From: Bacilli bacterium
GTDB taxonomy: Bacteria; Bacillota_I; Bacilli_A; ML615J-28; CAG-698
DNA length: 64,000 nucleotides
Direction: 5' to 3'
Assembly: GCA_050174575.1 (NCBI GenBank)
Contig: JBFXJT010000003.1
Location: forward strand, 1,689-65,688
Shown here: in pieces, positions 30,031-44,074 of the stretch
Layout: each line of letters begins with the position of its first letter
How positions within the stretch are numbered: position 1 is the stretch's first letter
The notes under the pieces: generated by a model
Database searches by the model: none
The model's input: the letters and a program-made list of their open reading frames with translations, nothing else
What the model was told of the DNA's origin: nothing
Made by a program: the position numbers and the translations under genes

Positions 30031-31500
30031 TCATTTATCGTAAGTTATTCCGATTTCAAAAGCCCGATTCCATGGGAAATAAGCTTTATAATTTTGTTTA
30101 AAGAATGGGTCGGACAAAACATGTAGCTCTTTTTGCAACAATTGTTTTAATTCATTGTTTGGTTTAAAATCAAACAAGTTTAAAAAATTAAGTCGCAAAT
30201 ATTCATGAACTTTTCCTCTCACGATATCTTGATAAAAACAATCATCAATAATTCGTTCTTGTAAGAACACATTTGTAAGTGCTATGTTTGGCGAAGTTTG
30301 ACTGCAATAAATTAGGGCTGTTGCAAGTAGGCTCCCAGTAGCGTTAGAAGCAGTATTCCAAGCACTATAACCTTTTAATTTTAAGAAATCAAGCTGTTTT
30401 AATAACCAAAAACAGCCGCCATTAGGTGTATGAATATCTAGCAAAAAGACAGGAGTTTTATTTTGCAGTACTTTATTTAGTTGCTCAATGAAGGAATTCG
30501 TGTTTTGGTCGGATAAGGCCTCTAATGGATGTTCGCGATCAGCGATTTCCATTTTTTGGAAGTTATCGCCTTGAAAAATTGCTAAAACAAACGATGCCTC
30601 TTGAATATCGTTCGTTCTTTGCATATGTAAAATGCTGGTCATTTTATTTAGGTTTTCTAAATAAGGACGATCTTCAAATGGAAGACAAATGTTTAATAGT
30701 TCTTCTTTTGGGTGCAACAGAAAATATTTTAATTCACGGTTTCCGATATTACTAATGATTTTTGCAAGTAAAAAAGTGGTTCCTTCATCGGTGCCGTTAT
30801 ATAACCAAGCTTTTTCTTCTAAATGGTGCTCTTTAATCTGCGCCATTAAAAGATCATGCTCCAATGTTTGCAAACCATCAGCCATTGAATCTTCTTGAAG
30901 AAGAAGCAAAAAATCAATTTCATTTTGTTGCAACATATTAATTGCTAGTTTGTTTACTTCGTGTTTTTTAATTCTTGCGATTTCATATGTTTTTAAAACA
31001 TCAACAGGGATTTTTAAACTAATTTCTTGAAACTTTTCACAGTCCTTTTGCTCATGGTATCGTAAATATTTTCCCTTATAACGGCTATACTCATTGATTA
31101 AACGCCAGTATTGTTTCGTTTTTTCATCAAATGTAGAAATGGAAGTGCGAAGAACGGTATCAAACATATAAATTTTTAGTTTTGGATTATGTTTTTTTAG
31201 TTTTTTTATTAATTGAATTTTATATTGTAATTCTTCTTTTGAAAAATTAGCACTTCTGCTTTGAATTAGTCCTCCACTAATGATACTATCTAGTGGACAA
31301 ATTAAATAATCGAGATTTCTTGCTTCTTCGTTTAAGAAGTTTTCGATGTTTTTAAAATCAAGTTTTGTATGGAGAGTCCCTAATTGGGTTTTATCCATCG
31401 TTATCAAATTGACGTTTGCTAATTTTGCTAATGTAATTGCCCAATCGTAATTACAAGGCCGACTATCTAGAGGAATTAAGCCAATATTCGTTTTCATCAT
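30031..31500 (-). CDS. Uncharacterised cytoplasmic protein, paralog A of a ~500 aa family (DUF4127-like; assignment from memory, unverified)
   Basis: Shares the N-terminal 'IGLIPLDSRPCNY' and C-terminal 'SAWNTASNATGSLLA' motifs with the paralogs at 45043 and 48483. The ATGATG start follows an AAAGGAG RBS; the track ORF is extended upstream. Confidence 0.5.
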   Translation of the reverse strand: MMKTNIGLIPLDSRPCNYDWAITLAKLANVNLITMDKTQLGTLHTKLDFKNIENFLNEEARNLDYLICPLDSIISGGLIQSRSANFSKEELQYKIQLIKKLKKHNPKLKIYMFDTVLRTSISTFDEKTKQYWRLINEYSRYKGKYLRYHEQKDCEKFQEISLKIPVDVLKTYEIARIKKHEVNKLAINMLQQNEIDFLLLLQEDSMADGLQTLEHDLLMAQIKEHHLEEKAWLYNGTDEGTTFLLAKIISNIGNRELKYFLLHPKEELLNICLPFEDRPYLENLNKMTSILHMQRTNDIQEASFVLAIFQGDNFQKMEIADREHPLEALSDQNTNSFIEQLNKVLQNKTPVFLLDIHTPNGGCFWLLKQLDFLKLKGYSAWNTASNATGSLLATALIYCSQTSPNIALTNVFLQERIIDDCFYQDIVRGKVHEYLRLNFLNLFDFKPNNELKQLLQKELHVLSDPFFKQNYKAYFPWNRAFEIGITYDK

Positions 31501-31569
31501 AAGCTCCTTTTTGTTCATATTGTAACACAGGCAATTTAAAAAGAGAATAAGAATATTTTTAAAAATCAA

Positions 31570-31598
31570 TTGACTAGACATTTAGTTGGTGCTATAAT
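31570..31598 (+). promoter_or_regulatory. Consensus sigma-A promoter (TTGACT-17-TATAAT) with an operator-like TTGACTAGACA element over the -35
   Basis: The -35 and -10 boxes are read directly. The identical 11-mer TTGACTAGACA recurs at the promoter at 50031. Confidence 0.5.
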
Positions 31599-31681: not shown

Positions 31682-33229
31682 ATGTTTAAAAAATTAATGA
31701 TTGCCTTTTTAATGATTGCCTCGGTTTTCATGTTTGTTGGATGTACTAAAGATGACGACGTTGTTGAAAGCTTAGACAACATTAAAATTTATGGCCCGTT
31801 TGACACATTTGACCCAGAAACTGATTATGTTCATCAACTAATCAAAGATATTACTGGTGTTGATGTTGATTATGACTTTTTACCACAAGATGGCGCTTCT
31901 GCAAATACTAAACTTTATTTAGATATTGCTGGACAAGCAGAATACCATTTGATGAAACTTGCTCCTACTCAATTTGATCAACTAAGAGCTGTTGGAGCTT
32001 TACTCGATATTACTGAATTACTAAACGAATATGGAACAAATATTACAAGTTCTGTTAGTGAAGAAGTATGGAAAACAGCAACTTACGATGGAAAAATTTA
32101 CGGTGTTCCTCAAAAGAACCCATCAAACAACATCAATAGTGCTTTATTCTTAAGAAAAGACATTTTTGTTGAAAACGAGATAGCTCTTCCAACTACTTTA
32201 ACGGAATTTAAAGATGCTATGGTTGCTTTAAAAACAAAATTAGGAACTGGATTTGTTCCTTTCAGTGCTAGTTCACATAACATTGAACCAATTAGAGGCG
32301 CCTTTGGGATCGTTACTGACTGGGTTCCACAAACTGATGGCACTTTAAAATATTGGACAGAAACAGCTGCTTTCTAAGACTATGCAGATTATATGAAAGA
32401 ATTAGTTGACTTGGGAGTTATGCAAGATGGTTATTTAACAATCCCTAATTATGGTGCAAATAGCCGTGCCGGATTGCAAAACGGAACAGTTGGTGTTACA
32501 CTAGATGCATGGTGGAGTGGCAATGGTATTATCAATGGTATCGCTGCTTCAGAAGGACAAACAGAAGAATATGTAATCGAACACGCTGCTGATTACTTAC
32601 ATTTTATTGACTCTTTATTAGGTGATGCTAATTATGGTACACCAGGAAAAGGTCAAGCTAAAATGGATTATTCCGTTACTTATTTCTATGCTATTCCAAA
32701 ATATATGGAAAACACAGCCATGGCCGTTATTAAATGGATGAATGAAAAAATGGATCCAGTTAACTTCAAACGTTTAACAATTGGTGAAGAAAATGTTCAT
32801 CATACACTTGTTGATGGCAAATATTTCCCAATATTAACACCTGATACTAATGGAAAAATTCCTTTTGATTCTTTCAATAAAGGTGATTATTTCTTAACTG
32901 GTATTCGCGAAGAAGATTATTCATTATACTGGCAATGTCGAGCTCGTAAGAATCCTCGTCAACAATTTGTTTGGGAAGGAATGAATACAGAAGCACAAAA
33001 AACAAGTGTCGGAATTTATGATCGCGTTGGTCTAGCTCCAGGATTCTTAATTTATGGCGCTAATAAAACGAAATTATCACAACTTACGACTGATTACTTA
33101 GTAAGTGTCATCACAGGCCAAGGGACACAAATGACACAAACTGAATTCAATGCGAAATTAGTTGCAGAAGCACAATTAACAGAAAGCATCGCTGAAGTTA
33201 ATGCTTGGTATGCAACTCTTGGTGATTAA
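31682..33229 (+). pseudogene. LplA/YesO-type extracellular sugar-binding lipoprotein (ABC SBP family 1) interrupted by an in-frame TAA at 32375-32377
   Basis: Lipobox 'FMFVGC'. ORFs 31682-32377 and 32393-33229 are in the same frame, and the read-through translation '...YWTETAAF*DYADYMKELVDLG...' is continuous SBP sequence. Confidence 0.6.
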
Positions 33230-33250
33230 TCCGCATTCGGAGGTAAATTA

Positions 33251-33886
33251 ATGGTTAATAGAGCACTTTTTGTTATGGGGCGTTTATTTTTATTAAATGT
33301 CATATATATTCTTACGATTGCTTTTAGTGTAGGAATATTGGTTGCCCCGGCAACAAGTGCTCTTTTTTATTGTACTAAAGACTTGTTAAAAAAAGATACA
33401 CACGAGTTTGGCTTTTTCAAACAATATATTAACATCATCAAAACAAAATTCCGTTATAGTTTTTTGTTTGGACTGATTGCTTTGATTATTCTTTATCTAT
33501 GTATCGTTAATTTAGATAATGTATTATTGCTGAATTATGAACAATGGTTATTAAAAACAATTGTTGTATTTCAATATATTATTATTCTTGAAACTTCTTT
33601 AATGTTTATTATGGTTCTTTTTTTGAATGGACTGTTTGTTTTTAATAAGTTTTCTGATTTATTAAAAATGTCTTTTTTCATTTTACATCGACATATCCTA
33701 ACAACTATTTTGTTGGGTATATCCGTTATTGTTCTCATCTATGTTTTTATTTATTACATCAACGCTTTATTCTTATTATTGTTTTTTAGTATGATTAGTT
33801 TATGGGTCAATTTATTATATTGGCCTATCGTGATAAAATATATAAAAAAGGAGGAAAAACCCGAACATGAGCAAGAAACCGAATAA
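33251..33886 (+). CDS. YesL-like membrane protein (DUF624)
   Basis: The N-terminal pattern 'RLFLLNVIYILTIAFSVGILVAPATSALFY' and its size/TM layout are typical of DUF624 proteins that accompany LplABC transporters. Confidence 0.55.
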   Translation: MVNRALFVMGRLFLLNVIYILTIAFSVGILVAPATSALFYCTKDLLKKDTHEFGFFKQYINIIKTKFRYSFLFGLIALIILYLCIVNLDNVLLLNYEQWLLKTIVVFQYIIILETSLMFIMVLFLNGLFVFNKFSDLLKMSFFILHRHILTTILLGISVIVLIYVFIYYINALFLLLFFSMISLWVNLLYWPIVIKYIKKEEKPEHEQETE

Positions 33887-34805
33887 GTTATTAAAACATT
33901 TTAAACAATATGGGGCCTTGTATTTCTTCTTAATACCCGGGTTAGTTCTTGTTGCCATTTTTAACTATGTTCCTATGGCAGGAATTGTTATTGCTTTTAA
34001 GCATTATGATATTTTTGCAGGAAATACACCAATTGAATCAATCATAAAAAGTGATTGGGCGGGATTTACCCATTTCGAAGCTTTATTTAGTAATAACGAC
34101 TTCATTAATGCTTTCGAAAACACTTTAATCATAAGCACTTATAAAATTGTTTTTTTATTCCCAATACCAATTGTTTTAGCAATCATGATTACCGATATTA
34201 AAGCTCTTTGGTATAAAAAGGTTATTCAAATTGTTTTATACTTGCCACATTTTTTGTCATGGATTGTTGTTACAGCTTTGTTTATTCAAATATTAGGGCC
34301 TTACGGGGTCATCAATAATTGGTTAAAAGATTTGAACATAATTGAGCATTCACTGGCCTTTTTTGGAAATAATGATATTTTCCGTGGACTGATTGTTATT
34401 TCTGCTGGATGGAAAGAAGTAGGCTGGAATGCGATTATATATATTGCTGCCATTACGGGGATTAACCCACAATTATATGAAGCAGCAAAAATGGATGGAG
34501 CCAATAAAATTCAACAAATTTTCTATATTACAATTCCATCAATTGCTAATACAATTGTTATGTTGTTTATTTTGCGAATTGGCGCTATTTTAGATGCTGG
34601 TTTTGACCAAATTTTTAATATGTATTCCTATGTGGTATATGATAAGGGTGATATTTTGTCAACACTTGTTTACCGATCAGGTATTGGACAACAAAACTAT
34701 AGTTTTGCGACAGCAGTCGGATTATTCAATTCCGTTGTTGCGTTAATCATGGTTCTTGGAGGCAATTATTTATCACGTAAAATCTTTAAGAAAGGATTGT
34801 GGTAA
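33867..34805 (+). CDS. Sugar ABC transporter permease, LplB-like (CUT1)
   Basis: 'KHFKQYGALYFFLIPGLVLVAIFNYVPMAGIVIAFKHY' is the characteristic LplB N-terminus, and the 'EAAKMDGANKIQQIFYITIP' EAA loop is present. Confidence 0.8.
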   Translation: MSKKPNKLLKHFKQYGALYFFLIPGLVLVAIFNYVPMAGIVIAFKHYDIFAGNTPIESIIKSDWAGFTHFEALFSNNDFINAFENTLIISTYKIVFLFPIPIVLAIMITDIKALWYKKVIQIVLYLPHFLSWIVVTALFIQILGPYGVINNWLKDLNIIEHSLAFFGNNDIFRGLIVISAGWKEVGWNAIIYIAAITGINPQLYEAAKMDGANKIQQIFYITIPSIANTIVMLFILRIGAILDAGFDQIFNMYSYVVYDKGDILSTLVYRSGIGQQNYSFATAVGLFNSVVALIMVLGGNYLSRKIFKKGLW

Positions 34806-34807
34806 TT

Positions 34808-35674
34808 ATGCTTGAGTCAAGAAGCGATAAAATATTCAGCATTATTGTATATATCATTTTATCCATTTTTGGATTATCAATTATTTTGCCGTTTTTCAAT
34901 TTATTAGCGACATCCCTTTCCGATCAAGTAGCTGTTTCTAACGGTTCAGTTTCATTTTGGCCAAAAAACTTCACATTTAGTGCTTACCAATTTGTTGTGC
35001 AAAACGATCAATTTTGGAATGGATTAAAAACAACGGTCTTTGTAACATTTGTTGGAACGGCATTAGCGATGGTTGTAACAACACTTGTTGCCTATCCGCT
35101 AAGCCTTCCCAAATTTCGAGCTCGTAAAATTTTTCTAGTTATCTTTATTATTGTTATGCTTTTTAATGGAGGACTAATTCCCACATATTTACTTATTAAT
35201 CAAATCGGATTACGTAATAATCGGTGGGCGCTAATCTTGCCATCCCTCATTTCTACATACAATATGTTACTTGTGAAAAACTATTTTGAAACATTGCCAG
35301 AATCATTGTATGAGTCCGCTAAAATTGATGGGGCAACCGAATTTCAAATCTTTTTGAAAATCACGTTACCTTTATCACTACCAACACTGGCAACTGTTGC
35401 TTTGTTTTATGCCGTTGGCTTTTGGAACGCTTATGTTAGTGGTATGTTGTATATATCAACACCGAGCAAAATGCCACTGCAAACATATTTACAAACGCTT
35501 CTCAATATGGCGTATATACCGGCACACGAACTATCGCCAGAAGCAGCTGAAAGTTTGTCGACGGAATCGATTAGAGCAGCAACAATTTTTTCAGCAACAG
35601 TCCCTATTTTGATTCTTTATCCTTTCTTACAAAAATATTTTGTGAAAGGGTTAGTATTGGGGTCGGACAAATAA
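34808..35674 (+). CDS. Sugar ABC transporter permease, LplC-like (CUT1)
   Basis: EAA-loop 'ESAKIDGATEFQIFLKITLP' with 6 TM helices. Confidence 0.8.
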   Translation: MLESRSDKIFSIIVYIILSIFGLSIILPFFNLLATSLSDQVAVSNGSVSFWPKNFTFSAYQFVVQNDQFWNGLKTTVFVTFVGTALAMVVTTLVAYPLSLPKFRARKIFLVIFIIVMLFNGGLIPTYLLINQIGLRNNRWALILPSLISTYNMLLVKNYFETLPESLYESAKIDGATEFQIFLKITLPLSLPTLATVALFYAVGFWNAYVSGMLYISTPSKMPLQTYLQTLLNMAYIPAHELSPEAAESLSTESIRAATIFSATVPILILYPFLQKYFVKGLVLGSDK

Positions 35675-36096
35675 TGAAAGACCGTTTTAAAATTTTTATC
35701 TTAAGATCCTGGGTAATTGGGATGGTTGTCGTTGTGGTTTATTTCATGATGAGTTTGCAACATATTTTTATTGGACTTATTTTAGGAATTATCAATACCT
35801 TTTTGGTTGATTTATTAAGTTTAACTATCAACAAAGGTAATCAGGCTGCTTTTCCTACAGGATGGAAATTGTTTTTTAAAACCATTTTCAATATTGCTAT
35901 TGCCATCATCATTAGTTTAATTATTCGCTTAATCGATTTGCAACTATTAAAAAACAACCTTATTACTATGCCAATTGAAACATTTCGCTTTATTGCTTAT
36001 TACCAAATTATTTATTATGGATCGTTATTCGTATATAACAAAATAAAAAGATTAATTGAGAGGAACAAAAATGAAACGATTATTAAAAAGCCTTAA
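35674..36096 (+). CDS. Small membrane protein of unknown function
   Basis: 3-4 TM helices. It overlaps neighbouring genes in an operon-like arrangement. Confidence 0.35.
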   Translation: MKDRFKIFILRSWVIGMVVVVVYFMMSLQHIFIGLILGIINTFLVDLLSLTINKGNQAAFPTGWKLFFKTIFNIAIAIIISLIIRLIDLQLLKNNLITMPIETFRFIAYYQIIYYGSLFVYNKIKRLIERNKNETIIKKP

Positions 36097-36766
36097 AACT
36101 AAACCGATGACACTTGTCGTCAGTTTGCCAGAAAACACTTACGAAATGGCAAAAGCTGCTTGGGAAGCAGGCGCAGATGCCATTAAAGTGCACATCAATT
36201 TATTTCACAACGCTAGTTTAATCAAATTTGGAACGATTGAAGAGCAACGACCTGTTTTAGAAAAAATATTGCACGACTCTCCGGTTCCTGTTGGTGTCGT
36301 AGCTGGCGAAAATACAAAAGTTAGTGAAGGGGTCATCGAAGAATTAGTTCGAATGGGATTCGATTTTATATCTTTGTATGGTCATCATATGCCTGTATCG
36401 TTATGCAATCGCCAAGACGTATCAAACTTATTTGCAATTGATTATAGTTATTCAGTTGAAGAAGTAAAAACAATTACTAATTCATTCATTGCAGAAATAT
36501 TGGAGTTATCAATTCTTCCTCATGAAGAATATGGTTCTCGTCTTAATGCCCGAGATTTAAGTCGTTATTTAGCTTTTTCACAAGTATCTAATATTCCAAC
36601 ACTTTTACCAACTCAAAGATTGATTTATCCGAGCGATGTTCAAGCAATTGCTAATTGTGGCGTCAAAGCAATCATGATTGGAGCAATTGTTTTTGGTCAC
36701 GATCTTCATCAAATGGTTGAACAAATAAAGTTATTTAAACAAGCTATAAATGAATTAAAGCAGTAA
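36071..36766 (+). CDS. Hypothetical cytoplasmic protein, possibly a TIM-barrel (alpha/beta) enzyme
   Basis: Alternating beta-alpha pattern with 'AWEAGADAIKVH' and a 'VKAIMIGAIVFG' phosphate-binding-like C-terminal motif. The family is not recognised with confidence. Confidence 0.35.
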   Translation: MKRLLKSLKTKPMTLVVSLPENTYEMAKAAWEAGADAIKVHINLFHNASLIKFGTIEEQRPVLEKILHDSPVPVGVVAGENTKVSEGVIEELVRMGFDFISLYGHHMPVSLCNRQDVSNLFAIDYSYSVEEVKTITNSFIAEILELSILPHEEYGSRLNARDLSRYLAFSQVSNIPTLLPTQRLIYPSDVQAIANCGVKAIMIGAIVFGHDLHQMVEQIKLFKQAINELKQ

Positions 36767-36776
36767 GGAGTAATTT

Positions 36777-37736
36777 ATGTCACTAGCGATTCAGGCCGTT
36801 CCGATATATGATAGTAAAGCGTTTGATATACGTCGCTATATCCATCCTCCAATATATGATGGAAAAATCGATCAAGAAAAACTTCCAATTGCCCCTCCAG
36901 CATGTTTTTTAGGAGCATGGTATCGTAAAGTTTTTTCATCATTTGACAAATGGGTTGGTATTGAAGGGGTGATTGAATTAGGAGAATTTACTCCCGATGA
37001 AGCACGTTTCAATTTAGATGGTAAAGGCCGCTATATGGATGTTCCAAGTATTTATATGGGTGGAAAAAGCGCTTTTGAAAGTGATGCCGGCTTAGGTTTA
37101 GGACCAACATATTTAACTTCTGATTTTTCTTTTGAATTAACAATGGCCAGTCCTAAAATAGCTTATCGTCCTTTTTGGCGTTATATTTATCAAGATGCAA
37201 CTGATATCAACGGTAATGTCAATCGACGTGAAATCAATTCTTGGAATGTTACTGAACCTAGAAGCGTTATTTATAGTTACTTTCCTGGTGATGTTTTAAG
37301 AATGAGTGTTTATAGTCCTATTCCTGATTACTTACAATTACACATCGAAGTATTAAAAACGACGACGATTCCTAAATATGTGCAAATTAGAGAACAATAT
37401 CATTTAGAAAATAATCGTCCCGATGATTTTTTCAGCCCAATCTTTTTATCAAAAGGTCATGGGAAAAATGATGCAGAATTTAAAAGAGTGAATGCTATTG
37501 ATCAATTTGGGAATGAAGGATTTCATGCAAAACCAACCAAAGCTGAAGTTTCAAAAGCTACTTGGCACGAAACATATTTATATCGGATGATTAATAACGA
37601 AGTTAGACGTATTCCATTTTCGAAAGCTAGGCAAACAAGTATGATTTGCCCAAACAATGATGCCGTTTCTGTTATCGACATTGATCCAGAAATTGGCAGC
37701 GAAGCAATAATCATTCATCCGGGGAAAATAAAATAG
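36777..37736 (+). CDS. Unknown-family cytoplasmic protein, 319 aa, paralog A
   Basis: ~45-50% identical to the 44071-45030 product. Shared blocks are 'FLGAWYRKVFSSFD.W.G.EGVI.LGEFTPD..RFNLDGKGRYMD.PSIYMGGKSA', 'AYRPFWRYIY..ATD..GNV.R.EINSWNV' and 'RQTSMICPN.DA'. It has no signal peptide and an AAGGAG RBS. Confidence 0.5.
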   Translation: MSLAIQAVPIYDSKAFDIRRYIHPPIYDGKIDQEKLPIAPPACFLGAWYRKVFSSFDKWVGIEGVIELGEFTPDEARFNLDGKGRYMDVPSIYMGGKSAFESDAGLGLGPTYLTSDFSFELTMASPKIAYRPFWRYIYQDATDINGNVNRREINSWNVTEPRSVIYSYFPGDVLRMSVYSPIPDYLQLHIEVLKTTTIPKYVQIREQYHLENNRPDDFFSPIFLSKGHGKNDAEFKRVNAIDQFGNEGFHAKPTKAEVSKATWHETYLYRMINNEVRRIPFSKARQTSMICPNNDAVSVIDIDPEIGSEAIIIHPGKIK

Positions 37737-37745
37737 GGGGTAAAG

Positions 37746-39449
37746 ATGAATTTTAATGAAACTACTTATATTTGTAAAAACGTATATTCCATTGATGGAA
37801 TATTAAAGTTTGATGGGAAAATCCCCGTTGATATCAATGGGCGTACAGTCACTTATAAAATGTATAGTAATTTCCATGAATTGCTTGATAAAAACATTTT
37901 TGAAGTGAACAATCATGGTCTTTTGTTTTACGTTCATTACGATGAAAATATTAAAGAGGATGGCTATTATTTAAACATTACTACTGAAAATAAAATCATC
38001 ATTAAAGCATCGAATATACGAGGAATCCGTTATGCCTTTAAAATGCTTAACGATTTAGCAAGAAAATCCAATGATGGGTTTTTATTACCCATTGTTTTAA
38101 TCGAAGACGAACCTTCATTCCCTATAAGAGGAATCGTCGAAGGTTATTATGGAGAACCTTGGACGTTAGATGAGCATTTAGATATGGCTGATTTTATGGA
38201 TCAATTTCGTTTAAATGCTTTTATGTACGCGCCAAAAACTGATCAATATCATCGTGAGAAATGGTTTGAATTATATCCGGATGATCTTTTTCAACAATTG
38301 TTAACAATAAAAAACAAGTTAGCAAGCAAGGATATCGATTTTTATTATTGTATCTCACCAGGTCATGCAAAAAATCCAGAAGATGGATTTCAATATGCGA
38401 AGGATGCTGATTTTGACCGTTTATTTATAAAACTTAAACAAGTTATTGATGTTGGTGTCAATCATTTCGGATTATTTTTTGATGATATTGATTATCAATT
38501 AAGTGGAGATAACTTACAACTTTTTAAACGCCCAGGAATTGCCCATGCCCATATTTGCAATAAAGTAATGGACTTTTTAAGAGAGAATGTAATTGACCCA
38601 GTTCTTGTTATGTGTCCAACAGAATATCATCAAATTGGCGCAACAGAATACCGTAATGATTTAAAACAAAATTTAGATGAAGATATTGTTGTTTTCTGGA
38701 CGGGAGACCGCGTTTGTGCAGAAGCTATTACAGAAAATGATGCTAAACAAACAGCAGAAGCTTATGAAAAACCAATTTTTATTTGGGATAATTTCCCTGT
38801 CAGCGATTTTACATACGGCGTGAGAGAATTTATTGCGCCAATTAAAAACAGAGCTGCCAATTTAAGTGATTATGCTTTGGGTTATTTAATTAATCCAAGC
38901 TTGCATTATCATATTTCAAAAATCGGAATGATTACTATGGCTCACTATGCATGGAATTGTCAACACTATGATTATGTGAAATCATATTCCATCGCATTAA
39001 ACAGCGTCAGCCATGAATTTGCAACTTTAGGGGAAGCATACTTCGAATATAATTATCCGAACGTTCTTTCTCATGGGAATTTAGCCTTAGAAAAGCAAAT
39101 GGTAGAAAATCATGATTATTCTGCAATTTTAGCTTATATGGAAAAAGTATCAAAGAGCGCAACGCAACTACTTACCATCAATGAGCCGATTATTGATGAA
39201 CTAAAACCATGGTTATTAAGAGTTATTGATGAAGAAAAAATCATCAAACAAATCATTGATGGAGAACTAAACAAAAAAACATTACTTACTTTCTTGCAAA
39301 ATATCAAATTTTCAGGTGGAAAAATCCTTGATTATTTGATTGCTGACAAAAAATTATTGACCGATGAAGAGTTTACTAATTTGCTTTCTAAACGACGAGG
39401 CGGAGAATGGTATCGTGTGTTTGAATACAAACGCTGGCCAAAGCACTAG
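37746..39449 (+). CDS. GH84-family beta-N-acetylglucosaminidase (O-GlcNAcase/NagJ-like), cytoplasmic
   Basis: 'FPIRGIVEGYYGEPWTLDEHLDMADFMDQFRLNAFMYAPKTDQYHREKW' matches the GH84 catalytic-domain N-terminus, and the catalytic Asp-Asp sits in 'FGLFFDDIDY'. It has no signal peptide. Confidence 0.8.
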   Translation: MNFNETTYICKNVYSIDGILKFDGKIPVDINGRTVTYKMYSNFHELLDKNIFEVNNHGLLFYVHYDENIKEDGYYLNITTENKIIIKASNIRGIRYAFKMLNDLARKSNDGFLLPIVLIEDEPSFPIRGIVEGYYGEPWTLDEHLDMADFMDQFRLNAFMYAPKTDQYHREKWFELYPDDLFQQLLTIKNKLASKDIDFYYCISPGHAKNPEDGFQYAKDADFDRLFIKLKQVIDVGVNHFGLFFDDIDYQLSGDNLQLFKRPGIAHAHICNKVMDFLRENVIDPVLVMCPTEYHQIGATEYRNDLKQNLDEDIVVFWTGDRVCAEAITENDAKQTAEAYEKPIFIWDNFPVSDFTYGVREFIAPIKNRAANLSDYALGYLINPSLHYHISKIGMITMAHYAWNCQHYDYVKSYSIALNSVSHEFATLGEAYFEYNYPNVLSHGNLALEKQMVENHDYSAILAYMEKVSKSATQLLTINEPIIDELKPWLLRVIDEEKIIKQIIDGELNKKTLLTFLQNIKFSGGKILDYLIADKKLLTDEEFTNLLSKRRGGEWYRVFEYKRWPKH

Positions 39450-39461
39450 GAAGGATTAGTG

Positions 39462-40127
39462 ATGATTGAACAATTAAAAAACAAATTGATAGTTTCATGT
39501 CAAGCAAAAGATAATGAACCTTTAAAAGACCCCCAAATTATGGCGAAAATGGCTGCTGCAGCATTACTTGGTGGTGCTGGTGGCATTAGGGCGGCAGGAG
39601 TTAACGATATTAAAGCAATTAAAGCCATGAATGAAACCATTGTTATTGGACTAATTAAAAAAGACTATTCGGATTCTGAAGTATACATTACACCTACTAA
39701 ACAAGAAGTTTTCCAATTGTTGGAAAGTGGTTGTGAGATTATTGCTTTAGATGGTACGAATCGCAATCGGCCCAACAAAGAAACATTATTCAGTTTAATT
39801 TCATTAATTCATGCCAATAACCGTTTAGCTATGGCTGATATTTCCACATTTGAAGAAGCTTTATTAGCCCAACAAGCTGGAGCAGATATGGTTTCCACAA
39901 CGCTTTCTGGTTATACAAGTTATACAAAGAAACGCCAGGGACCCGATATAAAGCTTGTCGGACAATGTGTTTCAAAACTGCAAATTCCTGTGCTTGCGGA
40001 AGGAAGGATTAGAAATCCTCAAGATTTAAAGAAAGTTTTACGAAAAAAACCGTTTGCTGTTGTTATTGGAACAGCAATAACACGTCCAACCGAAATTACT
40101 AAAACTTTCGTAGGGTGTTTTAAATGA
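39462..40127 (+). CDS. nanE: N-acetylmannosamine-6-phosphate 2-epimerase
   Basis: Collinear with E. coli NanE in 'LIVSCQA', 'IIALDGTNRNRP', 'TTLSGYT', 'AEGRIRNPQ' and 'VVIGTAITRP'. Confidence 0.85.
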   Translation: MIEQLKNKLIVSCQAKDNEPLKDPQIMAKMAAAALLGGAGGIRAAGVNDIKAIKAMNETIVIGLIKKDYSDSEVYITPTKQEVFQLLESGCEIIALDGTNRNRPNKETLFSLISLIHANNRLAMADISTFEEALLAQQAGADMVSTTLSGYTSYTKKRQGPDIKLVGQCVSKLQIPVLAEGRIRNPQDLKKVLRKKPFAVVIGTAITRPTEITKTFVGCFK

Positions 40128-41767
40128 ACAGAAAAACGATCAACGAATCTTATAAAGATATTCTAAGCAATTGGAATAATGAATTTTCCCATAATTATCC
40201 GATTACGGAACGATTATTCAAAGAAAAAATTCTTGATTCGCTAGAAATTGTTGCCGATGGTTCATACTCCTTATATGACAAAGAGGAATATATTGGCAGT
40301 GTTATTTTAAAATTTAATCATATTAATGATAAAAAATTGCAAGACTACGCTTATATTTCGTTTATTTTTGTGGCTTCAAAATTTCGAAATCGAGGATACG
40401 GTTCTGTTTTGATAAGTGATGCGCTTAGAATATGTATTGAATATGAAAAAAGCATGTTATATGTAGGTGGTGATAACGATTGCTTGTTTTCCGGTGTTTT
40501 TTTAGATAATAATGAATTTGTTCACCAATTTTTTAAAGAACATCGTTTTAATATTGCTTACAAAAATTATAATTTGATTTGTAAAGAACCACCAAAAACA
40601 ACAAACGACGAATACAAATATACGACGTTAAAGACTGAAAAAGAAAAAAAGGACTTATTAAAGCAAGTTCATAAATTATTTCCTTCAAGATGGCATTATG
40701 ATTTGCAAAGCTGTGAACCAAAAGCTTTTTTTGTTGCGAAAGAAAATGATAATATTGTTGGGGTTGTTCGTTTAAATACGCCTAAATCAAATCACATCGC
40801 CAACAGTGTTAATACTTATCCGTTATACAAAATGCTTGGAGGAATTGGCCCCGTTGCCATCTTCCCCGAAAAAAAGGGTTCGGAATTAGCCAACAACATC
40901 GTCAAACAAGCAGTCAACTATTTGTTCAACTTGGGATGCTCCGAAGTTATTGTCGATTGGACCAATTTTATTGATTACTTTAAAGCTTCGGGATTTTCGG
41001 ATATCTCTAATTCCTATGTTCTCTATGAATTGCGTGTTCAAGAAAAAATCAAAGGGCCAAAAACACATATTTATCAGGTTATCGAAAATGATTTACGACA
41101 TGACATTTTAGAAGGTAAATATAAACATGGAGATATTATTCCTAGTGAAGTGGAATTAGCTTCTACATATAAAGTAACGAGGATGACAGTTAGACAAGCT
41201 ATCAACAACTTGTTAATCGATGGATTTATATATCGTCATAAGGGACGCGGCACGTTTGTAACATATAATAAAAGAAATATTGATTTTGAAGACAAACCTT
41301 ATTTTTCATTTAACAATGATAAGGCAAATAATAATGAATTACGAACGACTGTTTTAATTTTTGAAATCAGGGCAGCAGATGAATTACTCGCTCTGCGATT
41401 ACAACTAAAAACAGGTGATCCGCTTTATTATGTTGAACGGGTTGTTTCCTATGATAATTTACCATTATTGTTTGAAAGATTATATTTACCAGCAAACATG
41501 TATGCCAATTTAAATGAAAAAATATTTGAAAAATCATTTTATCAATATGCGAAAGAGCAGTTGCACTGGAATTTAGTTTCATGCAACATCAATATAGAAG
41601 CAAGAGGTCTAAGTGGACGGGCTGCAGAAGTCTTACAATTATCCCAAGGCGATCCAGCGCTTTATTGCAGTAGTGTAGCTCACTTGGTCAATGGTAGAGC
41701 AATCTTGTATACTAGAACTTTTTTCAATGCGGAACAAGTAAATTTTTCCCATCAATTTTCTTTTTAA
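40124..41767 (+). CDS. Fusion protein: two N-terminal GNAT acetyltransferase-like domains plus a C-terminal GntR/HutC-family regulator (HTH + UTRA)
   Basis: GNAT motif A 'FIFVASKFRNRGYGSVLISDAL' is at ~aa 80-100, and a second GNAT-like region spans ~aa 190-300. The GntR HTH 'SEVELASTYKVTRMTVRQAINNLLIDGFIYRHKGRGTFV' is at ~aa 330-370, and a UTRA-type C-terminal domain follows. Confidence 0.7.
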   Translation: MNRKTINESYKDILSNWNNEFSHNYPITERLFKEKILDSLEIVADGSYSLYDKEEYIGSVILKFNHINDKKLQDYAYISFIFVASKFRNRGYGSVLISDALRICIEYEKSMLYVGGDNDCLFSGVFLDNNEFVHQFFKEHRFNIAYKNYNLICKEPPKTTNDEYKYTTLKTEKEKKDLLKQVHKLFPSRWHYDLQSCEPKAFFVAKENDNIVGVVRLNTPKSNHIANSVNTYPLYKMLGGIGPVAIFPEKKGSELANNIVKQAVNYLFNLGCSEVIVDWTNFIDYFKASGFSDISNSYVLYELRVQEKIKGPKTHIYQVIENDLRHDILEGKYKHGDIIPSEVELASTYKVTRMTVRQAINNLLIDGFIYRHKGRGTFVTYNKRNIDFEDKPYFSFNNDKANNNELRTTVLIFEIRAADELLALRLQLKTGDPLYYVERVVSYDNLPLLFERLYLPANMYANLNEKIFEKSFYQYAKEQLHWNLVSCNINIEARGLSGRAAEVLQLSQGDPALYCSSVAHLVNGRAILYTRTFFNAEQVNFSHQFSF

Positions 41768-41770
41768 TAT

Positions 41771-41795
41771 CAGTGCCATTTTTTGGCACTTTTTA
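41771..41795 (+). terminator. Terminator after the GNAT-GntR gene
   Basis: AGTGCCA-tttttt-GGCACT is followed by TTTTAATTT. Confidence 0.5.
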
Positions 41796-41797
41796 AT

Positions 41798-41809
41798 TTG
41801 TATATACAA
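41798..41809. promoter_or_regulatory. Perfect 12-bp palindrome TTGTATATACAA (GntR-family GT-N-TA-N-AC operator type) in the promoter region of the GHL10 gene
   Basis: Read directly. It lies ~17-28 nt upstream of a TATAAT at 41826-41831. Confidence 0.4.
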
Positions 41810-41854
41810 GTTGGTTATTAAATGTTATAATTAAGAAAAAAAGGAAATGACACA

Positions 41855-44074
41855 ATGAGGAAAATTCTTATGGCTTTTTTATTAACATCACTCGCAGCAA
41901 ACATTTTTGTTAATGCTGAACAAACAACGATTGTCGACGATTATTTAAATGGAAAAGACATCGTTCGTTACGAAAACTACTTAGTTTATTATAGTTTTAA
42001 TTCATCCTTGAAATCTCCTGCAAATCAATGGGGGTATGAAATTGCAGTGAGCCCGGACCATTTTGTAATTGATTGCGATACCAATGCAACCATGGAAGAA
42101 GGAGGTTACATTATTTCTGGTCATGGAACGAAAAAAACAATCCTTTTGGATGTCAATGTTGGCGATCAAGTAAATATCGATTGGGGAACTAAAAAAATTA
42201 TCATTACTAGAGATCCCCTAAAAAGTCCGCAGTTTTTAGCACACCGCTTTAAACAAACGGCAATTGATTATTACAATCAAGCTACAAAATACGGTTATGC
42301 TTTTGATTCTATCCTTGTTAATCAACTGATTGATCTGATTGACAAGGACTGTGATTTAATCGATGAGATTGCTATCAAAAGCGAGCCAACAAGTGATGAT
42401 TTAAATCAAGTAAAATTGTTAGCCGAAAACATCGAGACGCGGGCTTTAACAATCAAATTTCTTACTTCTTATTCTTCAAAAACGGAGATTCGAGCTTTGT
42501 GGCATCGGCCAAATGCAGCAGGGTTAAAAGAGGATAATTTAGACAATTTAAAAGCTTTCGTACAAGAAGTTAAAGATTTAGGGTTTAATACAATTTTTGT
42601 AGAAACATTGTGGAATGGATATGTTAGCTATCGATCAGATATCATCAGCACACACCCACAAGTAGCTGGTTTTACATATGGTGAAGTTTACCAAAACGAT
42701 TATATCGCAGCATTAATTGGCGAAAGCAAAAAACTAGGGATTGATGTTCATGCTTGGTGTCATACCTTCAATGCTGGAAATGTTACTTATAAAGCGGCAT
42801 CAATCAAAGATGAATGGTTACTAGAAAATTACCAAGGCTTAACATTGCACCCTAACACTTACGGTGGGAGTTATTATTTGGATCCATCAAATCCTGAAGT
42901 ATTAACTTACTTAACCAGTGTCTTTTTAGAAATGGTTGAGAAGTATGACTTTGCAGGTATCCAATTAGATTACATTCGTTATTATGATAACAACTATTCA
43001 CAAACGCCCATTAGAGATAGTGGTTACGGATTGCTTCCGGAAAATCGCTTTAAAGAAGCTTATGAATTAACCGGTGATGTCCGTGAACTCATCAAACAGG
43101 AAACAAATTTAGAAAAATGGAACAAATGGCGACAAGACAATGTCACTAACGCCGTCAAAACATTTTCACAAGCTTTACGAAATAAAAATCCCGAAATTGT
43201 CATCTCTGCTGATGTTGTTGCCAATATTACTTATGCAAAAGCAACATACATGCAAGATTGGAAAACATGGGTTGATAAAGGGTATATTGATTTACTTTGC
43301 CCAATGATTTATACAGGAAGTGCCGAAGCAATTAAAGAAGATTCTTTAGCTATTATGAACCAAATAAAAAATTTAGCCTTTTTATCTTCAGGTATTGCAC
43401 CGATTTATTATGGATATTCTGTAGAAATTAACCACGATGAATTTGAAGCAACGAAAAGTGCTGATGGCTTAGCCTTTTTTGCAAGTCAAAATATTGTTGG
43501 GTTACAAGAAGTTTCACAATCAATAAAAACAGGGGTATTTCGATTAGAAGCTACATCCCCACTTCAGAAAACGTCAATTGTTATTGAAAATGGATTGCAA
43601 CATTTAAAAGAATACGTAACTATGGCAATGGTAAATGAACCGCAACAACAAATGTTCCTTGACCATATAAACACGATGAGTGCCATGGATTGCAATAATC
43701 CATCTGATTATCAAAGCCTAATGGAAAAAATGGATTTTGTAAGAACAATATCTCCATATGTTATTTCCAATGACATTAGAGAAATTTTCAACTTGGAATT
43801 GGAACAATTAATTCATGTATTAGACGTCAAGATTAGCCGGGAAATGATTACTTTAGGTTTTTATGACCCCAGTGATGGAAGTCGACCAGACCCTGATTTA
43901 TTTGATTATCCTGTTGATGAACCCGAACCTGAACCAGAACCAGAACCTGAGCCAGAGCCTGAACCAGAACCCACTGACGAAAAAGGATGCTTGAATTTTT
44001 TTACAGCACCTTCAATAATATTCTTCGGATTGATACTTATGTTATTTAGAAAAAAAGAAAGAGGTAATATATGA
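41855..44074 (+). CDS. Secreted glycoside-hydrolase-like protein (GHL10/YngK-YddW-like TIM barrel) with a (Pro-Glu)n linker and a C-terminal membrane anchor
   Basis: Carries a signal peptide. The central region 'GFNTIFVETLWNGYVSYRS...' with 'DVHAWCHTFN' and 'GIQLDYIRY' resembles the DUF187/GHL10 family, though this assignment is unverified. The C-terminus is 'PEPEPEPEPEPEPEPTDEKGCLNFFTAPSIIFFGLILMLFRKKERGNI'. Confidence 0.6.
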   Translation: MRKILMAFLLTSLAANIFVNAEQTTIVDDYLNGKDIVRYENYLVYYSFNSSLKSPANQWGYEIAVSPDHFVIDCDTNATMEEGGYIISGHGTKKTILLDVNVGDQVNIDWGTKKIIITRDPLKSPQFLAHRFKQTAIDYYNQATKYGYAFDSILVNQLIDLIDKDCDLIDEIAIKSEPTSDDLNQVKLLAENIETRALTIKFLTSYSSKTEIRALWHRPNAAGLKEDNLDNLKAFVQEVKDLGFNTIFVETLWNGYVSYRSDIISTHPQVAGFTYGEVYQNDYIAALIGESKKLGIDVHAWCHTFNAGNVTYKAASIKDEWLLENYQGLTLHPNTYGGSYYLDPSNPEVLTYLTSVFLEMVEKYDFAGIQLDYIRYYDNNYSQTPIRDSGYGLLPENRFKEAYELTGDVRELIKQETNLEKWNKWRQDNVTNAVKTFSQALRNKNPEIVISADVVANITYAKATYMQDWKTWVDKGYIDLLCPMIYTGSAEAIKEDSLAIMNQIKNLAFLSSGIAPIYYGYSVEINHDEFEATKSADGLAFFASQNIVGLQEVSQSIKTGVFRLEATSPLQKTSIVIENGLQHLKEYVTMAMVNEPQQQMFLDHINTMSAMDCNNPSDYQSLMEKMDFVRTISPYVISNDIREIFNLELEQLIHVLDVKISREMITLGFYDPSDGSRPDPDLFDYPVDEPEPEPEPEPEPEPEPEPTDEKGCLNFFTAPSIIFFGLILMLFRKKERGNI
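43918..43974 (+). repeat. In-frame hexanucleotide microsatellite (GAR-CCN)x9 encoding the (Glu-Pro)9 linker
   Basis: 'gaacccgaacctgaaccagaaccagaacctgagccagagcctgaaccagaaccc' is read directly. Confidence 0.8.

Follow-up and report, generated by a model that had tools for sequence, protein, structure and literature searches.

Family X, a duplicated and uncurated beta-sandwich protein of amino-sugar loci and possible hydrolase of cell-envelope glycopolymers

Introduction

The window analysed here, a stretch of 64,000 nucleotides from a Bacilli bacterium, carries two copies of a gene whose product could not be assigned to any family when the sequence was first read, and both lie among genes for N-acetylhexosamine (HexNAc) metabolism. 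What this protein, here called family X, is related to and what it contributes to such loci are the questions addressed below.

Results

The two paralogs and their surroundings

The two copies, X_A and X_B, occur among the following features of the window.

30031..31581, minus strand: third DUF4127 paralog, divergent, transcribed away from the importer operon on the other strand
31682..35674, plus strand: CUT1-type ABC importer (lipoprotein solute-binding protein, DUF624 protein, two permeases)
35674..36766, plus strand: u140 (small membrane protein) and u236 (faintly ribulose-phosphate/NanE-like barrel), conserved, just 5' of X_A
36777..37736, plus strand: X_A, 319 aa, apparently cytoplasmic, between the TIM-barrel-like u236 gene and the GH84 gene
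37746..39449, plus strand: GH84 beta-N-acetylglucosaminidase (PF07555), cytoplasmic
39459..40127, plus strand: NanE, ManNAc-6-phosphate 2-epimerase (PF04131)
40124..41767, plus strand: GntR/UTRA regulator with a fused double GNAT domain, closing the first putative transcription unit
41772..41831, plus strand: terminator-like hairpin (41772-41790), then promoter-like site (41803-41831), consensus matches only
41855..44074, plus strand: GHL10 (PF02638), 739 aa, secreted, with signal peptide, first gene of the second putative transcription unit
44071..45030, plus strand: X_B, 319 aa, apparently cytoplasmic, with GHL10 upstream and a DUF4127 gene next
45043..46545, plus strand: DUF4127 paralog, 500 aa, without signal peptide
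46547..48490, plus strand: NAGPA-type phosphodiester glycosidase (PF09992), 647 aa, secreted, with signal peptide
48483..50012, plus strand: second DUF4127 paralog, 509 aa
50089..55473, plus strand: surface lipoprotein, 1794 aa, weak Ig-like and GH85_C matches

The hairpin and promoter-like site would part the two transcription units, and the 1794-aa surface lipoprotein is kept 3' of NAGPA/DUF4127 in related loci. A sequence-only reading had placed X_A at the head of a GH84-NanE-regulator segment, but X_A is internal to a longer co-directional string that begins at the solute-binding-protein gene (31682). That gene carries an in-frame stop (32375-32377), a point against the reading of the locus preferred below, and its intact ortholog in locus L004 is 515 aa. 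The start of X_B does overlap the GHL10 stop, as had been claimed, by 4 nt (GHL10 ORF end 44074, X_B start 44071).

The ORF list and translations bear out the equal length and common MSLAI start of the two proteins, both of which begin at ATG with a Shine-Dalgarno-like motif 5' of the gene. BLASTP aligns them with 198/317 identities (62%) and zero gaps (E 2e-152), and the blocks CFLGAWYRKVFSSFD, RFNLDGKGRYMD, SIYMGGKSA, AYRPFWRYIY, EINSWNV and RQTSMICPN occur in both copies as first described; only the last block was misquoted, reading IIIHPGK in X_A and VIIHPGK in X_B. No hydrophobic signal segment is present at either N-terminus, in agreement with the earlier report of no signal peptide, and both proteins look cytoplasmic. 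With 66% nucleotide identity, 50% identity at third codon positions and, in related MAGs, an ortholog of each copy at the same position (77-86% identical), the duplication is ancient and neither copy has been lost. These syntenic, copy-specific orthologs rule out a recent tandem duplication or an assembly artefact.

Distribution and cellular location

X_A and X_B had no match in Pfam-A or NCBIfam at E<=1, nor among PDB sequences at E<=10 (phmmer), and a closely related X profile (A1) returned noise only from the PDB, so that the label of an unrecognised protein was justified. X is a small protein family without a curated description. Its members are few, forming 236 clusters at 50% identity in a set of 1.84 billion representatives, but with 463 close relatives and matches to 176 GTDB species it is not restricted to one strain. 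Most members belong to wall-less Bacilli (Acholeplasmatales, Izemoplasmatales, Haloplasmataceae), and others occur in Pyrinomonadaceae, Chitinophagaceae and T9SS-secreting bacteria. The description as a cytoplasmic family fits both window copies but not the family at large, which includes lipoprotein, periplasmic and T9SS-secreted members; the lipoprotein forms carry Ig-like domains, and up to three X copies occur per locus in different compartments. Acholeplasma laidlawii, for one, encodes a cytoplasmic form (P0087) and a lipoprotein paralog (L001, 4110-5456).

Seventeen polar residues (Y49, K51, D57, D88, S91, Y93, E101, D103, R131, R135, K236, R237, N239, D242, Q243, N246 and E247) are found throughout the cytoplasmic, lipoprotein and acidobacterial classes, whose sequences are 25-35% identical, and secreted lipoprotein and periplasmic members keep them as well. 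The many invariant Asp/Glu/Arg/Lys residues and aromatics suggest a ligand-binding or active site, as had been proposed from the sequence; that the ligand is a sugar we infer. Roles given to these residues below are guesses from strand periodicity and weak alignments.

Predicted fold and remote homology

The AlphaFold (AF2) model of X is all-beta (pLDDT 95.3, pTM 0.92), and its nearest solved folds, a set that Foldseek reproduces, are YncM/CPAVM1, neprosin, GH16, the eqolisins and HC7, a di-glutamate mucinase; the guess of a lectin-like beta-sandwich accords with the concanavalin/lectin-like fold predicted by model and fold search. The only family reached by an X sequence profile is YncM/YrpD (PF15493): a diverse profile found YncM in hmmsearch (E 9.4e-5) and in hhalign (89%, E 2.4e-6), the YncM sequence having been reconstructed from seven partial proteins found in a homolog search with a YncM-fragment seed and scoring 281.7 bits against PF15493. 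Homology to YrpD/YncM is thus detectable and the fold is the same, while the PF15493 model itself matched neither X_A nor X_B at E<=1 and 0/64 diverse members at E<=0.01. The first reading, which could match X to no family, is therefore borne out for curated models but not for remote homology and fold neighbours, which include glutamic peptidases and GH16. The best reading is that X is a remote, uncurated branch of the YncM/YrpD-eqolisin-GH16 concanavalin-like beta-sandwich group.

X and YncM/YrpD (PDB 4HFS; CPAVM1 PDB 8XAI) have E-x-D-x-G-L, [RK]-P-x-x-[RK] and PG[DS]xVxM in common, but X has ~110 more residues, its N-terminus being extended and loops inserted, and its C-terminal motif K-R-V-N-x-I-D-Q-x-x-N-E-G is its own, absent from the YncM sequence. 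YncM is a secreted Bacillus protein without a curated function, whereas X is found in amino-sugar loci. Protease activity is reported only for the YncM homolog CPAVM1, described as secreted (Li et al. 2024, cited in PMC13291215).

The G1 eqolisins (PF01828; PDB 1S2B/2IFW, 1Y43) and G3 neprosin (PDB 7ZVC/7ZU8) are fold neighbours, X having the eqolisin beta-sandwich fold and local motifs resembling theirs (PGDxxxMSV to EGDSIQMSV, AEF to AEF). The Peptidase_A4 model (PF01828) matched neither X_A nor X_B and hit one of the 64 members weakly (E 0.004, below any curated threshold); hhalign comparisons with the eqolisins SGP and AGP (profiles A1 and A2; global; local greedy) were non-significant throughout, and residue equivalences are accordingly tentative. 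The catalytic dyad is Gln53/Glu136 in G1 (SGP numbering) and Glu/Glu, E188/E297, in G3 neprosin, with SGP E136 and neprosin E297 as general base (PMC9343461). Weak alignments would put the corresponding positions of X (Gln/Glu-Glu in glutamic peptidases) at Asp103 and Val238 or Asp242: a motif-based mapping sets Asp103 at SGP Gln53, and a local alignment pairing AEF with AEF sets the universal V238 at SGP Glu136.

HC7 (DUF3472; PDB 8PMU/8PN5; Narimatsu et al. 2024 Nat Catal, cited in PMC13003899), grouped with BACCAC_02064 (PDB 4QHX) among the systems closest to X, belongs to the di-glutamate mucinases, which as cited stand between glycan hydrolases and peptidases and recognise HexNAc-bearing substrates. 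Sequence identity of X to this group is 8% and X has no Pfam DUF3472 match, and HC7 targets mucin glycopeptides extracellularly, whereas X loci hold no mucin-related genes. GH16 and X both have an E-x-D pair on one strand, and X loci are polysaccharide-utilisation-like, but X lacks part of the GH16 signature E-x-D-x-(x)-E, invariant Gly105 replacing the third carboxylate, and the strand motif E-[ILV]-D-[IVAF]-[VILMF]?-E is absent. Identity to GH16 and PL7/PL18 is 4-8%, with no Pfam GH16/PL7 match. The PL7 alginate lyases conserve R-x-E-x-R, Q-[IV]-H and Y-F-K-A-G, and X does not have this motif set.

These neighbours raise the alternative that X might be an amidase or peptidase of the glutamic-peptidase type acting, like HC7, on the peptide part of a glycopeptide, for example on the stem peptides of muropeptides, in an AmpD/AmiE-like role, or on O-/N-GlcNAc glycopeptides. 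The top fold neighbours (YncM/CPAVM1, neprosin, scytalidoglutamic and aspergilloglutamic peptidases, the O-glycoprotease HC7) and the single weak PF01828 match speak for it; peptidoglycan cleavage is published for GHL10 (PMC6016235), the GH3/GH84/GH20 enzymes of X loci could be NagZ-like, the Lys/Arg cluster of X could bind peptide carboxylates, and acidobacterial X loci have extra hydantoinase/oxoprolinase-like and ATP-grasp-like genes. We nevertheless consider it unlikely, since the profile comparison with eqolisins is non-significant and the only alignment obtained sets V238 at the general-base Glu and Asp103 at Q53/E188. Further, the characterised G1/G3 enzymes are secreted and work at acid pH, while X is cytoplasmic (as are X_A and X_B) or in a neutral-pH periplasm and has no propeptide; MurQ, AnmK, amidase_2/3 and LD-carboxypeptidase genes are absent from Mollicutes-type loci, and NanE with ROK indicates free ManNAc, not MurNAc.

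Gene neighbourhoods across genomes

Context was counted over 78 non-redundant X loci, 52 of Mollicutes type and 26 others. DUF4127 genes are present in 52 of the 78 (37/52 Mollicutes-type, 15/26 other; many loci without it come from contigs truncated at an end), followed by PF12831 flavoprotein (40), GNAT2 (31), GHL10 (25), GH3 (24), NAGPA (22), NanE (21), GH84 (14) and GH20 (10). Directly 3' of X lie DUF4127 (18 times), GH84 (14), NanE, GH3 and GHL10 (11 each). ROK and BadF/G kinases, NagA, NagB or a SIS deaminase, and SGNH, AXE1 and alpha/beta hydrolase esterases recur. In unrelated phyla X genes have DUF4127 and HexNAc-catabolic genes no more than 10 kb away; the conserved DUF4127/GHL10/NAGPA/NanE HexNAc locus so defined is operational and not a named system. 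The co-occurrence with DUF4127 that the first reading had suggested looking for in other genomes is real and extends across phyla, and in locus L040 the two are fused in a single DUF4127-X ORF (DUF4127 E 9e-53, X E 4.5e-140); another protein, P0151, fuses X to NAGPA with a T9SS tail. DUF4127 is far more widespread than X, and a Paenibacillus DUF4127/NanE/ROK/FADox/GHL10 locus has no X, so that DUF4127 does not depend on X as a partner and X, judging from loci of this kind, would be dispensable for the core pathway or replaceable. In Paenibacillus locus L082, ADP-ribosylglycohydrolase-like genes lie next to DUF4127.

Two familiar cluster types were rejected. With NanA and sialidase absent and NanE as the sole Nan gene, the loci are not canonical sialic-acid (Nan) clusters; lacking MurQ, AnmK and amidase genes, they are not canonical muropeptide-recycling clusters. 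Literature searches on DUF4127, PF13552 and 'N-acetylmannosaminidase' found nothing.

The flavoprotein gene suggests another partner for X: the PF12831 enzyme would oxidise a hydroxyl of a (Man/Glc)NAc-glycoside and X would hydrolyse or eliminate the resulting keto-glycoside, by analogy with glycoside 3-dehydrogenase and concanavalin-like 3-keto-disaccharide hydrolase or with PL7-type elimination. PF12831 is the commonest identified gene directly 5' of X (20 cases), its stop often overlapping the X start codon, a DUF4127-FADox-X triad recurs in Acholeplasma, Izemoplasmatales and Chitinophagaceae loci, and R131-x-x-x-R135, on one strand face, is presumably comparable to the PL7 motif R-x-E-x-R. 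Such a partnership is improbable, as the 64-kb window contains X_A and X_B but not a single PF12831 gene, a cytoplasmic flavoenzyme could not reach lipoprotein or T9SS forms, and no unsaturated- or keto-sugar-processing genes were recognised downstream. The 3-keto-disaccharide hydrolase family PF06439 (DUF1080), considered solely because X adjoins the flavoprotein gene, gave no Pfam match to X_A, X_B or the 64 members, and matches to lyase families were likewise absent.

Discussion

We tentatively propose that X is a hydrolase cleaving an anionic, ManNAc/GlcNAc-containing cell-envelope glycopolymer, a substrate that we infer from the neighbouring genes. The system as a whole would be catabolic, directed at an O-acetylated, partly N-deacetylated polymer such as a teichoic-acid-like sugar-1-phosphate polymer, a secondary cell-wall polymer or the peptidoglycan-linkage region. 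Secreted GHL10, NAGPA and the large surface lipoprotein may fragment this polymer outside the cell, and two ABC importers would take up the oligomers. In this connection, the GHL10 domain of C. difficile Cwp19 is a peptidoglycan lytic transglycosylase (PMC6016235), and NAGPA domains are fused to homologs of cell-surface teichoic-acid phosphoesterases (bioRxiv 10.1101/2024.03.27.587046). Cytoplasmic X might then cut a linkage beyond the reach of the acetamido-assisted GH84, such as beta-ManNAc or one at a phosphate- or carboxylate-bearing residue, with E101/D103 together with D242/E247 as putative carboxylates and the basic cluster K51, R131, R135, K236 and R237 as the putative holder of the anionic group. 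X would alternate with GH84 and work with DUF4127, and the released HexNAc or HexNAc-6-P would pass through NanE, NagA and NagB. Secreted members may make the same cleavage on the polymer itself; in Acholeplasma-type loci lipoprotein X is the only candidate secreted enzyme among the called genes checked for a signal peptide, which fits a depolymerase role. Against a glycosidase, the nearest solved relatives of X with reported activity are peptidases.

That X is instead a non-catalytic lectin- or CBM-like protein presenting or sequestering substrate for DUF4127, NAGPA and the solute-binding protein is highly improbable, for although the lipoprotein genes adjoin solute-binding-protein genes and encode Ig-like domains, and fusion to a catalytic NAGPA domain is a CBM-like architecture, stand-alone cytoplasmic copies sit in catabolic operons, the universal polar residues, four carboxylates and five basic side chains among them, are more than is usual for binding modules, and multiple copies in different compartments are typical of enzymes.

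The hydrolase reading has a more specific form, which we hold to be doubtful: X as a new glycoside-hydrolase-type family (a beta-N-acetylmannosaminidase, or cleaving beside HexNAc-1-phosphate) that with DUF4127 and bacterial NAGPA forms the core of an undescribed multi-phylum system by which wall-less Bacilli and soil Acidobacteriota feed on other bacteria's cell-wall glycopolymers (teichoic-acid-like or secondary cell-wall polymers). More broadly, X, DUF4127, bacterial NAGPA and GHL10 travel with NanE, NagA and NagB across five lineages (Acholeplasmatales, Izemoplasmatales, Haloplasmataceae, Pyrinomonadaceae and Chitinophagaceae), a pattern that defines a coherent and experimentally tractable predicted pathway with an amino-sugar polymer as its substrate, probably microbial necromass derived from cell walls. 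X could explain how free ManNAc or ManNAc-6-P arises in the absence of sialic acid, and with X the YncM/YrpD-eqolisin fold group, itself poorly understood, reaches into cytoplasmic carbohydrate metabolism. Judged by its conserved residues, X has the clearest enzyme-like signature of the putative pathway, and since it also occurs in two cultured hosts, Acholeplasma laidlawii and Haploplasma axanthum, it offers a practical entry point to a new CAZyme or peptidase family.

A small protein family without a curated model

The two paralogs of protein family X occupy the following positions:

36777-37736, + strand: X_A, ORF of 319 aa with an MSLAI start
44071-45030, + strand: X_B, ORF of 319 aa with an MSLAI start

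Both ORFs were recovered as the sequence-only reading had described them, and pairwise protein alignment places them at 62% identity, end-to-end and gap-free (E 2e-152). The shared sequence blocks quoted in that reading occur in both copies apart from the last, which is IIIHPGK in X_A and VIIHPGK in X_B. Shine-Dalgarno-like sequences are present at both genes, and the X_B start does overlap the stop codon of the GHL10 gene, by 4 nt. Identity at the nucleotide level is 66% (50% at third positions) and each copy has its own orthologs, 77–86% identical, at the same locus position in three related MAGs (L004, L007, and L011), which argues that the duplication is old and that both copies have been maintained. 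The window protein is identical to P0001, a database protein from a 'Bacilli bacterium' MAG.

Neither paralog matched Pfam-A or NCBIfam at E ≤ 1 and a PDB sequence search gave no match, so the family was rightly called unrecognised. The 463 relatives found in a collection of 5.8 billion sequences are all annotated as 'hypothetical' and none carries a Pfam domain; the family forms 236 clusters at 50% identity (1.84 billion representatives searched, E ≤ 1e-3). Confinement to this strain, which would have weighed against the proposal, is not what was found, with 176 hits among 185,579 GTDB species genomes and hosts in several phyla. X is a genuine, conserved, small family without any curated model. 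The main hosts are wall-less or Mollicutes-related Bacilli, including Acholeplasma laidlawii, A. granularum, Haploplasma, Paracholeplasma, Anaeroplasma, Izemoplasmatales, Haloplasmataceae, and Liberiplasma, and a distant branch (33–38% identity) occurs in GTDB genomes of Pyrinomonadaceae and other Acidobacteriota, Chitinophagaceae, and Sumerlaeota. It should be noted that five contigs labeled 'uncultured Bacteroidales' or 'Prevotella sp.' (L008, L010, L014, L017, and L031) are almost the same as the Mollicutes-type locus in gene order and sequence, with X at 61–84% identity, and are probably mis-binned rather than products of horizontal transfer.

Cellular locations and fusions

The description of X as cytoplasmic applies to X_A and X_B, whose N-termini have no hydrophobic signal segment, but not to the family as a whole. 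Signal or lipoprotein leaders are present on the neighboring GHL10, NAGPA, solute-binding, and 1794-aa proteins. Cytoplasmic forms of X are about 320 aa, while in lipoprotein forms (430–575 aa), which have a lipobox, the X domain is C-terminal and accompanied by one or two Ig-like domains (PF16403, PF20578); their genes usually lie directly 3′ of an ABC solute-binding protein gene. Acidobacterial forms have a signal peptide and a length of about 385 aa; their genes follow a TonB-dependent receptor-like gene (recognized from sequence only) and an inner-membrane transporter. Two proteins are T9SS-sorted: P0152 consists of an X domain and a T9SS tail, and the secreted, 997-aa P0151 combines a signal peptide, X (169–425), a NAGPA phosphodiester glycosidase domain (460–577), and a T9SS C-terminal sorting domain. 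A locus can hold up to three copies in different compartments. A single 857-aa ORF in a Hadza gut 'Bacilli' MAG (L040, 8387–10960) contains a full DUF4127 (E 9e-53) and a full X (E 4.5e-140), and is either a true fusion or the result of a stop codon lost in assembly. Together, the putative DUF4127-X fusion and the X-NAGPA protein tie X to its neighbors.

Genomic context and predicted pathway

In the window, X_A and X_B appear to lie within two co-directional gene units:

30031-31581: third DUF4127 gene, divergently encoded
Unit 1: ABC solute-binding protein (in-frame stop), DUF624, two permeases, u140, u236, X_A, GH84, NanE, double GNAT-GntR/UTRA regulator
41772-41790: terminator-like hairpin between units 1 and 2 (consensus match only)
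41803-41831: promoter-like site between units 1 and 2 (consensus match only)
Unit 2: secreted GHL10, X_B, DUF4127, secreted NAGPA, DUF4127
3′ of unit 2: 1794-aa lipoprotein, then a second ABC importer

ORFs were called and clustered in 81 fetched loci, and cluster representatives were annotated with Pfam.

Table. Gene families near X in 78 non-redundant loci (52 Mollicutes-type, 26 other); many of the loci negative for a family lie on truncated contigs.
Family; Mollicutes-type; other
DUF4127; 37/52; 15/26
PF12831 FAD oxidoreductase; 24/52; 16/26
NAGPA; 22/52; 0/26
Double GNAT; 18/52; 13/26
NanE; 17/52; 4/26
GHL10; 14/52; 11/26
GH84; 14/52; 0/26
GH3; 2/52; 22/26
GH20; 6/52; 4/26

Co-occurrence with DUF4127, a check proposed by the sequence-only reading, extends to both groups of loci as well as to the DUF4127-X ORF. 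The gene directly downstream of X is most often DUF4127 (18 times), followed by GH84 (14) and by NanE, GH3, and GHL10 (11 each); directly upstream, the flavoprotein was counted 20 times and GHL10 11 times. Also recurrent are ROK or BadF/G kinases, NagA, NagB or SIS deaminase, PIG-L, and esterases (SGNH, AXE1, and alpha/beta-hydrolase). At least 2572 relatives of DUF4127 were found, including in Paenibacillus and Heyndrickxia, which makes it far more common than X; it is modeled with a confident fold (pLDDT 94.9) that has no close solved relative. X is likely a functional component of a HexNAc-polymer locus, coupled to DUF4127 and NAGPA. This locus is conserved in several phyla, and several of its other families likewise have no assigned reaction.

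X is absent from a Paenibacillus sediminis locus (L082, 7383–14854) in which GHL10, DUF4127, NanE, ROK, and the PF12831 flavoprotein occur together with an ADP-ribosylglycohydrolase-family gene. The ADP-ribosylglycohydrolase-like gene adjoins DUF4127, the position taken by X elsewhere, and may be a non-orthologous replacement.

The combination of NanE, ROK or BadF/G kinases, NagA, and NagB indicates production of HexNAc-6-P or of free HexNAc, specifically ManNAc, and its channeling into fructose-6-P by a route that does not involve the sialic-acid enzymes (NanA, sialidase). GH84, GH20, and GH3 would remove beta-GlcNAc, and the esterases and double GNAT suggest a substrate that is O-acetylated and partly N-deacetylated. 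In animals, NAGPA cleaves GlcNAc-1-phosphodiesters. The bacterial NAGPA domain is fused to cell-surface teichoic-acid phosphoesterase homologs (bioRxiv 10.1101/2024.03.27.587046), and the GHL10 domain of Cwp19 has been shown experimentally to be a peptidoglycan lytic transglycosylase (PMC6016235). The simplest common denominator would be an anionic polymer from the cell envelope of other bacteria that contains ManNAc/GlcNAc. Candidates are a teichoic-acid-like polymer of sugar-1-phosphates, a secondary cell-wall polymer of ManNAc and GlcNAc, and the murein linkage unit. A literature search returned nothing on DUF4127 or an 'N-acetylmannosaminidase', and the bond-specific activities required for these polymers thus appear to be orphan.

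Fold and conserved residues

The AlphaFold2 model of X (pLDDT 95.3, pTM 0.92, from a 44-sequence alignment) comprises some 16 strands plus a single short helix and, with its Foldseek neighbors, bears out the earlier guess of a beta-sandwich. The top Foldseek ranks are the CPAVM1 'protease' (8XAI), YncM, and scytalidoglutamic peptidase (SGP). YncM was also detected by sequence with a profile of 64 diverse X sequences (E 9.4e-5), and a YncM sequence pieced together from database fragments aligned in hhalign to X residues 87–193 with 89% probability (E 2.4e-6), with the common motifs E-x-D-x-G-L, [RK]-P-x-x-[RK], and P-G-[DS]-x-V-x-M. Since YncM itself falls in Pfam PF15493 ('Domain of unknown function, YrpD'), X is best read as a remote relative of that family and not a member. 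The fold superfamily of X is already known.

Conserved positions were those with the same residue, at 85% or more in each, in all three classes of 107 X domains from fetched loci (59 cytoplasmic, 23 lipoprotein, and 25 acidobacterial or other). These are F44, G46, A47, Y49, K51, D57, W59, G61, I62, L68, D88, S91, Y93, G95, G96, E101, D103, G105, R131, P132, F133, W134, R135, P170, G171, K236, R237, V238, N239, I241, D242, Q243, N246, E247, G248, W263, L268, P280, and I313. Although overall identity is 25–35%, no fewer than four carboxylates and five basic residues belong to this set. Cys43 and Cys291 (X_A numbering) are invariant across cytoplasmic forms, and the one acidobacterial example inspected (L056) has them too. 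The inspected lipoprotein forms carry other residues there (e.g., V/S and A), and the pair is thus not essential to the shared function. A structural disulfide would lead one to expect the reverse distribution.

Possible roles of X

We tentatively favor X as a hydrolase that cuts a polymer or oligomer linkage which the acetamido-assisted GH84, GH20, and GH3 cannot handle. This reading draws on the same conserved site in secreted, periplasmic, and cytoplasmic copies, the adjacency of X to exo-HexNAc-ases and NanE, the fusions to NAGPA and DUF4127, and fold neighbors that include GH16 and the glycan-recognizing HC7. HC7 appears in the reference list of PMC13003899 as a 'di-glutamate' mucin glycoprotease, whose family is said there to form a bridge from glycan hydrolases to peptidases. 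Additionally, in the Acholeplasma loci the lipoprotein X is the only candidate secreted enzyme identified among called genes, with signal peptides checked for part of the neighbors. Hydrolysis would proceed via the E101/D103 strand together with D242/E247, with a Lys/Arg cluster binding substrate phosphate or carboxylate.

A glutamic-type glycopeptide or muropeptide peptidase would agree with the top fold hits, among them CPAVM1, a YncM homolog for which protease activity was claimed by Li et al. 2024 (as cited in PMC13291215), and with the GHL10 precedent, but is unlikely given the cytoplasmic location of X, the absence of muropeptide genes, and a dyad left unconfirmed by comparison with SGP. 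G1/G3 peptidases pair a general-base Glu (E136 in SGP, E297 in neprosin) with Gln53 or Glu188 (PMC9343461). No comparison of the X profiles with the SGP sequence, checked against 1S2B, was significant. The best local alignment, itself non-significant, matches PGDVLRMSV to EGDSIQMSV and A233-E-F of X to A131-E-F of SGP, which would tentatively equate the universal Val238 with Glu136; with the register moved by four residues, Asp242 would take that place instead. A tentative motif comparison ([QD]-x-G-[FL]-x-W) puts Asp103 at the Gln53 position, and PF01828 matched weakly (E 0.004) in one of 64 X members.

The frequent adjacency of the PF12831 flavoprotein and X would suit a partner enzyme cleaving keto-glycosides, a role made quite improbable by the absence of the flavoprotein from the 64-kb window and the existence of secreted X forms. 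A non-catalytic lectin is highly improbable, as the conservation pattern fits an anionic-substrate active site better than a lectin. The nearest relatives of X are peptidase-like and not lectins.

Other features of the window

The conserved pair u140 and u236 (35674–36766) lies 5′ of X_A-type genes in many loci. The former is a small multi-pass membrane protein; no Pfam family matches the latter, which resembles ribulose-phosphate 3-epimerase (3INP, E 0.04) and NanE only faintly. Based on its place in the string GxDLY-u236-DUF4127-FADox (the PF12831 flavoprotein)-X of NanE-less loci, u236 may be a second sugar-phosphate epimerase-like barrel.

The lipoprotein solute-binding gene of the first ABC importer (31682–33229) is split by an in-frame TAA at 32375–32377 into fragments of 231 and 278 aa; either the gene is a pseudogene or the stop reflects a sequencing error. 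Its ortholog in L004 is intact (515 aa). In the locus regulator (40124–41767), two GNAT acetyltransferase domains are joined, unusually, to a GntR/UTRA DNA-binding/effector module; at other loci the double GNAT is encoded on its own, as a protein of about 310 aa. The 1794-aa surface lipoprotein (50089–55473) is conserved 3′ of NAGPA or DUF4127 in related MAGs at 43–81% identity, with weak matches only, to Ig-like, GH85_C, and sialidase-lectin domains. Finally, in an OppC-type oligopeptide permease (759–2756; OppC_N and BPD_transp_1), the N-terminal TM segment and the permease core are separated by an inserted RCC1-like beta-propeller some 350 residues long.
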